Part shown: piece by piece, positions 56,794 through 58,961 of the stretch | Layout of the letters: the number at the start of each line of letters is the position of its first letter | Position numbering within the stretch: the stretch's first letter is position 1 | DNA from: Escherichia coli | GTDB lineage: Bacteria; Pseudomonadota; Gammaproteobacteria; Enterobacterales; Enterobacteriaceae | Strand: one strand, 5' to 3' | Assembly: GCF_003991155.1 (NCBI RefSeq) | Contig: NZ_CP031293.1 | DNA: 64,000 nucleotides | Made by a program: the position numbers and the translations under genes | The notes under the pieces: model-generated | What the model was told of the DNA's origin: nothing | The model's database searches: none | Seen by the model: only the letters and a program-made list of their open reading frames with translations

Positions 56794-57912
56794 TTACCAG
56801 GCCGGGATCATAACTAACAAAACGTATCCCACCAGCGCCGCCCACAACAGCATCGGTATTGAATAGAGATGGAAACGCCACCAGATGCGGCGATCGTTCG
56901 CCATCCGTAACGCAATCAAATTTGCCAGCGATCCGGGTAATAAACCAAAGCCACCTACGTTTACCGCCCATGCCAATAATAAAGACGGTGGCACATAATT
57001 GAGCAGCAAAATGGTACTCGGCACGTTACTGATCACCTGCGATAAACCGATTGCCGTTAACCATAACCCGGGTTCAGATAAATGACTCACGTTACCCAAC
57101 ACGCCTTGCAACGCTGGAAGCTGGGTCAGTAAATGGACGTCGATAAACATCGCCATAAACACCAGCAGCAGCGTCCAGTCCACACTGAGCACCACGCGAC
57201 GTGCCAGCAGCGCAAAGCCTGCCGCCACAATCACCAGTCCCCACAGCTCTTGTTTGAACTCCAGCGCCGTCAGAAAGACGATATACAGCCCCAGACAACT
57301 CCACACCAGCCGCGGTTTCCACTCCGGCGTTTGCGCCCCCGTATGGTACGGCAGCGCCTTTCCAGGGAAACAACACCAGCACAACAGCAGGAGTGTCAGC
57401 ATCATTGCGCCAGCCAGCGGTGCCATTTGGGCAATAAATCCGGCAAACGAAAGACCAGAACGTCCCCAGATAAGAATATTTTGCGGGTTGCCAATTGGCG
57501 TCAGTAGCGAACCCGCATTGACTGCCAGCGCCTCAAAAATAATCAGCCGATTAACCGGGATCTCACACAGTCTTTTTAGCGTGATAGTCAGCGGAACAAC
57601 TATAAACAGCGCGACATCGTTGGTCAGAAAGGTAGAAAGCAGCGCCGCCGCCAGCACCATAAACATCGCCAGCCGACGCTCCGTAGCAAAGCGGCGCACC
57701 ATTTTGCGCCCCAGCACATCAAAATAGCCGCTTAACTCCACACCTTTGGTCAGCAGCATCAGGCCGCTTAAGGTGATGATGGTGTGCCAGTCGATAGCAG
57801 CAGGCCATGATTTCGGTGCAAAGGGCACGAAAAAGCTTAATCCGATACCAACAAGAATTAATAACTGAAAAAAACGATCGCCTTGCAGCGTGCGTAAAAA
57901 AGGCAGGCTCAT
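56794..57912 (-). CDS. ybiR: Putative transporter YbiR (ArsB/NhaD superfamily)
   Basis: 372 aa polytopic protein; overlaps mntR stop. Confidence 0.85.
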
Positions 57913-58376
57913 TTGGCACCGTGTTTCTGGGTAAACAAACGAAAAGCGTCGAGCGTCTCTTCACTAACATGGTGCTCCATGCCTTCCGCGTCGCGACGGG
58001 CGATTTCCGGACTGACGCCCAACACCAACAAGAAATTTTCGACTATCTGATGTCGCTCGCGGCTTTCCTGCGCCAGCTTCTCTCCTTCTGCCGTTAAAAA
58101 CACGCCACGCCAGGGGATCATTTCAATCAGCCCCATGGTTGCCAGTCGCTTAAGCATTTTAGCCACCGTCGGTTGCGAAACTCCCAAACGAGCAGCCATG
58201 TCTACCTGACGAGCTTCCCCCACTTCCCTGATCAAGTCAGAAATCAGCTCAACGTAATCATCAATAAGCTCGCGCCGATGCGCCTCTCTGACCTGGCGGA
58301 ACCCTTCAACGTGCTCTTCCACGTTCACTAACTGCGTCACTTTTTTTGCTGTTGGCGTACCTGCGCGACGACTCAT
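57909..58376 (-). CDS. mntR: Manganese-responsive transcriptional regulator MntR (DtxR family)
   Basis: 155 aa, recognised sequence. Confidence 0.9.
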
Positions 58377-58485
58377 TGTGCTTCCTCATTATGGTGACGC
58401 ATACCTAGCGTTCTCATTTCGTGCGCACATTGTAAACCAGAGTTGCGAAGGTACAAAAAATTAACGTTTTAGCAATAGCTATATA

Positions 58486-58503
58486 ATATAGCCTGTGCTA
58501 TAT
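58486..58503. promoter_or_regulatory. Candidate MntR operator upstream of mntS
   Basis: Perfect inverted repeat ATATAGC-ctgt-GCTATAT about 60 bp upstream of the mntS ATG; AT-rich palindromes are typical of MntR boxes. Confidence 0.45.
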
Positions 58504-58561
58504 CTGTATGTAATGCAATCATCCCTCAAGGATCGACGGGATTAGCAAGTCAGGAGGTCTT

Positions 58562-58690
58562 ATGAATGAGTTCAAGAGGTGTATGCGCGTGTTTAGTCAT
58601 TCTCCCTTTAAAGTACGGTTAATGCTGCTCTCTATGTTGTGCGATATGGTCAACAACAAACCGCAGCAAGATAAACCTTCCGATAAATAG
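58562..58690 (+). CDS. mntS: Small protein MntS (42 aa), Mn homeostasis
   Basis: Hand-translated: MNEFKRCMRVFSHSPFKVRLMLLSMLCDMVNNKPQQDKPSDK*; SD aggagg 6 nt upstream; below the 60-aa cutoff so absent from the ORF track. Confidence 0.8.
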   Translation: MNEFKRCMRVFSHSPFKVRLMLLSMLCDMVNNKPQQDKPSDK

Positions 58691-58961
58691 CGGCGTCGCG
58701 GTACGCCGCTTCACTCCTGCTTTTATGCAGGCACAACGCGTTTTGGTCTGAAAAACCCCACTTTTTGTCGGATTTGCAATCCCCTTCGCAAAAGATTTGT
58801 TCGTCAGTAGTTGACCTGAACGGCGGCTCGCTCTATCTTCTTGCAGCCCTGCGTATATTGCGGCTCGCGGATGCGGACCCCTTTCCCCTCTCCACGCACT
58901 CTTGCAGGTATTGACCCTTGACGCCAGGGTAAGCACATGGCGTTTGTTACGATAGTGGCAT

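Follow-up and report, generated by a model that had tools for sequence, protein, structure and literature searches.

What does the short stretch of DNA between mntR and opgE encode, and how is it controlled? The question arises in a 64,000-nt stretch of Escherichia coli DNA (RefSeq assembly GCF_003991155.1, contig NZ_CP031293.1; hereafter the window), for which an earlier note, made from the letters alone, had recognised MntS in a short reading frame preceded by a palindrome, a candidate MntR box. The locus is the known E. coli gene mntS, formerly described as the rybA RNA gene, and it is already annotated and published. We are highly confident in the reading as a whole: mntS with two MntR boxes at its promoter, Mn-dependent occlusion of that promoter, and a product that inhibits MntP. 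Because mntS, its control by MntR and its target MntP are in the literature, this reading carries little weight as a discovery; the only additions made here are the upstream box 1, its fixed 19-bp geometry across Enterobacteriaceae and the evidence that a longer antisense reading frame is an artefact, and these are modest. Coordinates are collected in Table 1.

Table 1. Features of the mntS locus, in positions of the window.
Feature	Position	Strand	Remarks and basis
mntR, divergent repressor gene	57909..58376	-	NCBIfam NF008273, 269 bits against a cutoff of 153; RefSeq annotation
Candidate MntR box 1, TTAGC-aata-GCTAT	58469..58482	.	about -26 to -13; pattern search and conservation
Likely -10 hexamer TATAAT of the mntS/rybA promoter	58482..58487	+	read from the sequence; comparative
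Candidate MntR box 2, ATATAGC-ctgt-GCTATAT	58486..58503 (core 58488-58501)	.	about -7 to +7; sequence comparison
mntS mRNA ('RybA' RNA as annotated in K-12)	58495..58834	+	mapped from the K-12 ends
Shine-Dalgarno AGGAGG	58552..58557	+	4 nt before the ATG; sequence and conservation
mntS coding sequence, 42 codons and stop	58562..58690	+	K-12 identity, NCBIfam NF033226, RefSeq annotation
Post-stop hairpin GCGGCGT-cgcggt-ACGCCGC	58691..58710	+	directly 3' of the stop codon; stem kept across loci
Spurious antisense ORF, 119 aa, TTG start	58619..58978	-	not a gene

Translation of the 42-codon ATG frame gives MNEFKRCMRVFSHSPFKVRLMLLSMLCDMVNNKPQQDKPSDK, which is identical to MntS of E. coli K-12 (b4705) and matches the NCBIfam equivalog NF033226 ('small_MntS') at 96 bits against a cutoff of 36 (E = 6.3e-28, residues 1-39 of 42). 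A Pfam scan of the peptide returned no match, yet PF26599 is precomputed for homologs in the protein database; we read this as a discrepancy between resources, due to a gap in the Pfam copy scanned, and as no evidence against MntS. When a 581-bp query was matched at 95% identity or more to complete E. coli genomes, mntS was annotated under the match in 5421 of 5426, RefSeq naming it 'mntS: manganase accumulation protein MntS'. The recognition of MntS in the earlier note is thus fully borne out, and its remark that the ORF track had missed the gene proved to be a matter of a length threshold only, as the frame is listed once the minimum is lowered to 30 aa.

A search of 5.8 billion proteins found 136 MntS homologs. 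Among the 120 listed, every functional name was MntS or an equivalent (a few entries being 'hypothetical' or 'uncharacterised'), and the named ones came from Escherichia, Citrobacter, Salmonella, Klebsiella, Enterobacter, Kosakonia, Kluyvera, Trabulsiella and relatives. When 20 sequences were aligned, M1, N2, E3, K5, R6, C7, V10, F11, H13-F16 and V18-L20 were invariant and C27 was at least 90% conserved. The window peptide has all the conserved residues, including the N-terminal block MNEFKRC..VFSHSPFKVRL, and also those studied as possible metal ligands (E3, C7, H13, C27 and D28); its 42 residues agree with the length of about 41-43 aa expected of MntS. The gene order, ybiR-mntR head-to-head with mntS-opgE, is that of K-12, and five substitutions separate the two sequences over 585 bp (58377-58961); with the same protein, promoter sequence and neighbours, nothing of substance differs from the mntS/rybA locus of K-12. 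Wright et al. have proposed that MntS derives from the signal peptide of an MntR-associated SitA. When a 41-position MntS HMM was run against 1.84 billion representative proteins, the 34 matches were all of 138 aa or less and included no protein of SitA length, for which the profile is too short.

In K-12 MG1655, mntS is nested inside rybA (b4416), a 340-nt annotated ncRNA, an annotation that favours taking the transcript as mainly a non-coding regulatory RNA in which the 42-codon ORF would be incidental or secondary. One study, as represented in two papers that cite it (PMC11878033, PMC4361602), had RybA repressing aroF and aroL under peroxide stress, and the authors of PMC4361602 left an sRNA role in other contexts possible. 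We weighed this possibility on mntS loci from the genomes of 80 different species, which were collected by their protein, a choice that puts no selection on the upstream DNA. Across codons 1-36 of the 77 distinct sequences, however, variable columns numbered 17, 10 and 30 of 36 at codon positions 1, 2 and 3, with mean minor-allele fractions of 0.105, 0.045 and 0.215. This excess at third positions is the signature expected of purifying selection on the plus-strand frame, in agreement with the predominance of silent changes reported earlier (PMC4361602). The strong Shine-Dalgarno that the earlier note had pointed out is indeed there, and all six of its columns are at least 90% conserved across the 77 distinct loci, the ATG being conserved as well. 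The RNA itself gave little sign of structure: the 340-nt fold is no more stable than that of shuffled sequence (z = 0.07) and the post-stop hairpin is the only structurally conserved element. A scan of 57800-59200 against Rfam gave no relevant family at E <= 1 (a chance snoRNA-like match came at E = 0.86), and we know of no RybA family in Rfam to be matched. Published genetics also speaks against a mainly non-coding transcript: the Mn phenotype is lost on frameshifting at F11 or at F16, and Hfq is dispensable for it (PMC4361602). A tagged protein has been detected under Mn limitation (PMC4361602). A structured sRNA finds no support here and a secondary role of the RNA is possible, and we consider it very improbable that the transcript acts mainly as a regulatory RNA with the ORF incidental or secondary. 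We therefore retain mntS as a protein-coding gene.

Upstream of this coding sequence lies the palindrome, hereafter box 2. The earlier note had placed it correctly: it is a perfect 7-4-7 inverted repeat, with ATATAGC at 58486-58492, the spacer ctgt, and GCTATAT at 58497-58503. It is also beyond chance: for its core, ATAGC-N4-GCTAT, about 0.06 occurrences would be expected per 64 kb, and the window has two, here and upstream of dps; with up to one mismatch there were seven matches in the window against 1.6 expected, and no shuffle out of 100 gave as many. The core is exact in all 80 mntS loci, which come from roughly 15-20 named enterobacterial genera, and box 2 stands 71-77 nt upstream of the ATG throughout, so that the conservation in other genomes which the note had asked for is found. 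The right 7-nt arm is invariant in the 80 loci. The left arm reads ATATAGC in 70 and ACATAGC in the other 10, the full 7-4-7 repeat thus being perfect in 70 of 80; because these outer bases vary, the conserved unit is a 5-4-5 core with flanks and not the full 7-4-7 repeat. The spacer is CTGT in 75 of the 80 loci, and between 58488 and 58508, 19 of 21 columns never vary and the remaining two are conserved to 90% or more.

The same core is found at other genes of the regulon. Upstream of K-12 mntH it is exact at 17-30 nt before the start codon (positions 3224-3237 of locus L003), and upstream of K-12 mntP an exact core (2810-2823 of locus L004) is accompanied by a one-mismatch site 40 bp away (2770-2783); the comparison with the operators of mntH and mntP that the earlier note had suggested therefore comes out in favour of its box. 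The second exact core in the window is ATAGC-tggt-GCTAT at 62586-62599, 50-63 nt upstream of the dps ATG at 62649, and both exact cores in the 64 kb thus sit at MntR-regulon genes. We take dps to be an MntR target of the E. coli regulon, and it was reportedly found as such by Yamamoto in 2011. The core sites at mntH, mntP, dps and mntS are presumably the MntR sites reportedly defined by experiment in Patzer and Hantke (2001), Waters (2011) and Yamamoto (2011). Full-text literature searches for the operator sequence returned nothing useful. When six sites were aligned, the consensus was AAAYATAGC-N4-GCTATRTTT, so that the sites of mntS, mntH, mntP and dps have in common the core ATAGC-N4-GCTAT and the flanks aAAY...RTTt. 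On sequence comparison, these exact bases are assigned as the MntR site at mntS, and the sequence, position and conservation of the palindrome support it as a putative MntR operator.

The earlier note had overlooked a second box in tandem: its MntR box stood, with a core kept in all species sampled and found again at mntH, mntP and dps, but it was only part of the arrangement. A pattern search located box 1, which departs from the core at one base and lies 19 bp upstream of box 2. This offset is always exactly 19 bp in the 79 loci whose DNA reaches that far. The box 1 core is exact in 14 of them (among Enterobacter, Lelliottia, Kosakonia and Silvania), differs at one base in 61 and at two in 4, so that 75 of 79 depart from it by at most one base. 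The spacer of box 1 takes several forms (AATA, CATA, CGTA, CTTG, AATG) with the half-sites kept, which is the pattern that a dimeric DNA-binding protein would impose. Mean conservation is 98% in the half-site columns, 70% in the mntR-proximal intergenic DNA and 78% in the 5' leader.

These data bear on the possibility that the palindrome is an AT-rich promoter feature or a chance repeat, with MntR acting elsewhere or indirectly. The AT-rich region overlaps the -10 hexamer and the start site and would be conserved for reasons of its own, the box 2 spacer is nearly invariant, and box 1 in E. coli is mismatched to the core (TTAGC). Indeed, 58451-58511 is highly conserved throughout, and in this interval conservation by itself does not tell the constraint on an operator from that on the promoter and the 5' leader; as the box 2 spacer is also nearly invariant, which is more than an operator alone would require, promoter and leader constraint is superimposed on that of the operator. 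Against a mere promoter feature or chance repeat, however, stand the exact 10-base core at the mntH, mntP and dps promoters, the box 1 half-sites that persist while the spacer changes, and a reporter: the PmntS fragment confers Mn repression on egfp only when MntR is present (PMC9806134). We therefore regard this alternative as highly improbable and retain the two boxes as candidate MntR sites.

Where the boxes lie relative to the promoter was read from K-12. The rybA gene maps to the window with 2 mismatches in 340 nt, and its 5' end, 58495, is the G within the ctgt spacer of box 2. Published transcripts of 205 to about 400 nt share the same 5' end, and the ORF is present in every one of them (PMC4361602). 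The last base of the TATAAT hexamer is 8 nt before this 5' end (7 nt between), and other genera have TAnAAY at that position. A promoter scan of the window did not call the mntS promoter and no convincing -35 hexamer was found, so the promoter, like the post-stop hairpin, was placed from the K-12 annotation and comparative data. With the transcript start in the box 2 spacer and the -10 hexamer between the two boxes, the arrangement is compatible with repression.

Such a layout suggests how the switch could work. The mRNA from 58495 has a 67-nt leader, the strong Shine-Dalgarno and the 42-codon ORF, and at the GC-rich hairpin after the stop it would terminate only in part. Box 1 would occupy the DNA separating the -35 region from the -10 hexamer, and the core of box 2 would begin just past this hexamer and extend over the transcription start. 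At high cytoplasmic Mn2+, MntR loaded with Mn would sit on both boxes, and two neighbouring dimers, covering about -26 to +7, would exclude RNA polymerase and turn mntS off. We infer the occupancy of both boxes, the cooperative binding and the occlusion geometry; the repression of mntS transcription by MntR:Mn is published (PMC4361602). When Mn2+ is scarce, MntR would leave the DNA and MntS would be made; MntS binds and inhibits the exporter MntP (bioRxiv 10.1101/2023.06.02.543501), by which intracellular Mn would rise.

The layout can be compared with that of other sites and regulators. Both mntH and mntP are E. coli MntR regulon members according to the literature. Two boxes are found at mntP, as at mntS, and only one was found at mntH and at dps. 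The spacing differs, being 19 bp (1.81 turns) at mntS and 40 bp (3.81 turns) at mntP, but the fractional helical phase is the same, which may reflect a common geometry of two interacting dimers. The mntS boxes lie on the core promoter, as befits repression, whereas those of mntP are found some 370-420 bp upstream of its start codon, and at mntP MntR is described as an activator. Among DtxR/IdeR-family repressors, such as B. subtilis MntR at mntH and mntABC, both the Pfam architecture (Fe_dep_repress and Fe_dep_repr_C) and the logic are alike, a metal-loaded dimer sitting on a palindrome overlapping both -10 hexamer and start site, but the E. coli-type box is unlike the Bacillus box in sequence. 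For B. subtilis MntR acting as an activator, cooperative binding to several sites is on record (PMC11275975), whereas at E. coli mntS it is only proposed.

On the other side of the intergenic region, mntR is head-to-head with mntS in 77 of the 80 loci of other species. We noted a tentative candidate promoter for mntR-ybiR on the minus strand (TTGTAC at 58456-58451, 16 nt, TACAAT at 58434-58429), whose columns are mostly at least 90% conserved and relative to which box 1 lies at about -47 to -61. Autoregulation of MntR through shared boxes is conceivable. That the two boxes form one cooperative two-dimer operator, which perhaps also controls the divergent mntR-ybiR promoter, is an idea we think rather unlikely; if it were true, MntR would autoregulate itself together with YbiR through the very sites that repress mntS. 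A literature search on mntR autoregulation in E. coli gave nothing decisive.

In two Citrobacter genomes (C. amalonaticus AUH_CA_2023_1 and Citrobacter sp. R56; loci L013 and L027), mntR-ybiR is absent upstream of mntS. C. amalonaticus has there a frameshifted phage-type integrase (Pfam Int_N and Phage_integrase) and a WYL-domain ORF (1276-2333 of L013), which end about 170 nt before the mntS ATG. The junction in both genomes is at box 1, which is degenerate (ATAGt-tgat-GCTtT), whereas box 2 and the -10 hexamer are unbroken; their mntR-mntS intergenic region appears to have received a mobile element.

At the 3' end of the gene, the hairpin keeps its 6-bp stem (GCGGCG/CGCCGC) essentially unchanged across loci, one locus having a G-to-A change in the 3' arm, and its loop varies. 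The tail that follows is TTCATTTTT in most genera, a clean U-tract, with which the hairpin has the form of a canonical intrinsic terminator. The Escherichia tail is TTCACTCCTGCTTTT, a degraded U-tract, and a simple terminator scan of the window did not call the hairpin. It is likely a leaky intrinsic terminator in E. coli: the degraded U-tract may explain the read-through transcripts of this species, and a hairpin with such a tail is consistent with the transcript ladder in the literature, from 205 to about 400 nt.

The ORF track reports a 119-aa antisense frame at this place, overlapping both mntS and the start of opgE. It could be argued that this is the real gene and mntS the artefact, as it is the longer of the two and the one that the track contains. 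We rejected it: besides starting with TTG, it has no Pfam or NCBIfam match and no RefSeq annotation, K-12 carries an in-frame stop in it, and it does not persist in other Escherichia. At this place the longest antisense ORF measures 60 aa in another E. coli and 87 aa in E. albertii; two Escherichia sp. genomes have 46-50 aa, and elsewhere the range is 40-118 aa. Where the frame overlaps mntS, its first codon position coincides with the most variable position of the plus-strand frame. There is next to no chance that it is a gene and mntS the artefact, in line with the earlier note, which had called it almost certainly spurious. With mntS as the gene, the locus is useful as a control: a length-threshold ORF track misses small-protein genes and reports a longer spurious antisense ORF instead, and a first-pass reading of a Shine-Dalgarno, a short ORF and an upstream palindrome recovered a small-protein gene.

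Further downstream, a promoter-like TTGACC, 17 nt, TATCTT lies on the plus strand at 58811-58839, in the 3' tail of the annotated rybA and about 120 nt upstream of opgE. Its TTGAC columns are invariant, and it is probably the opgE promoter.
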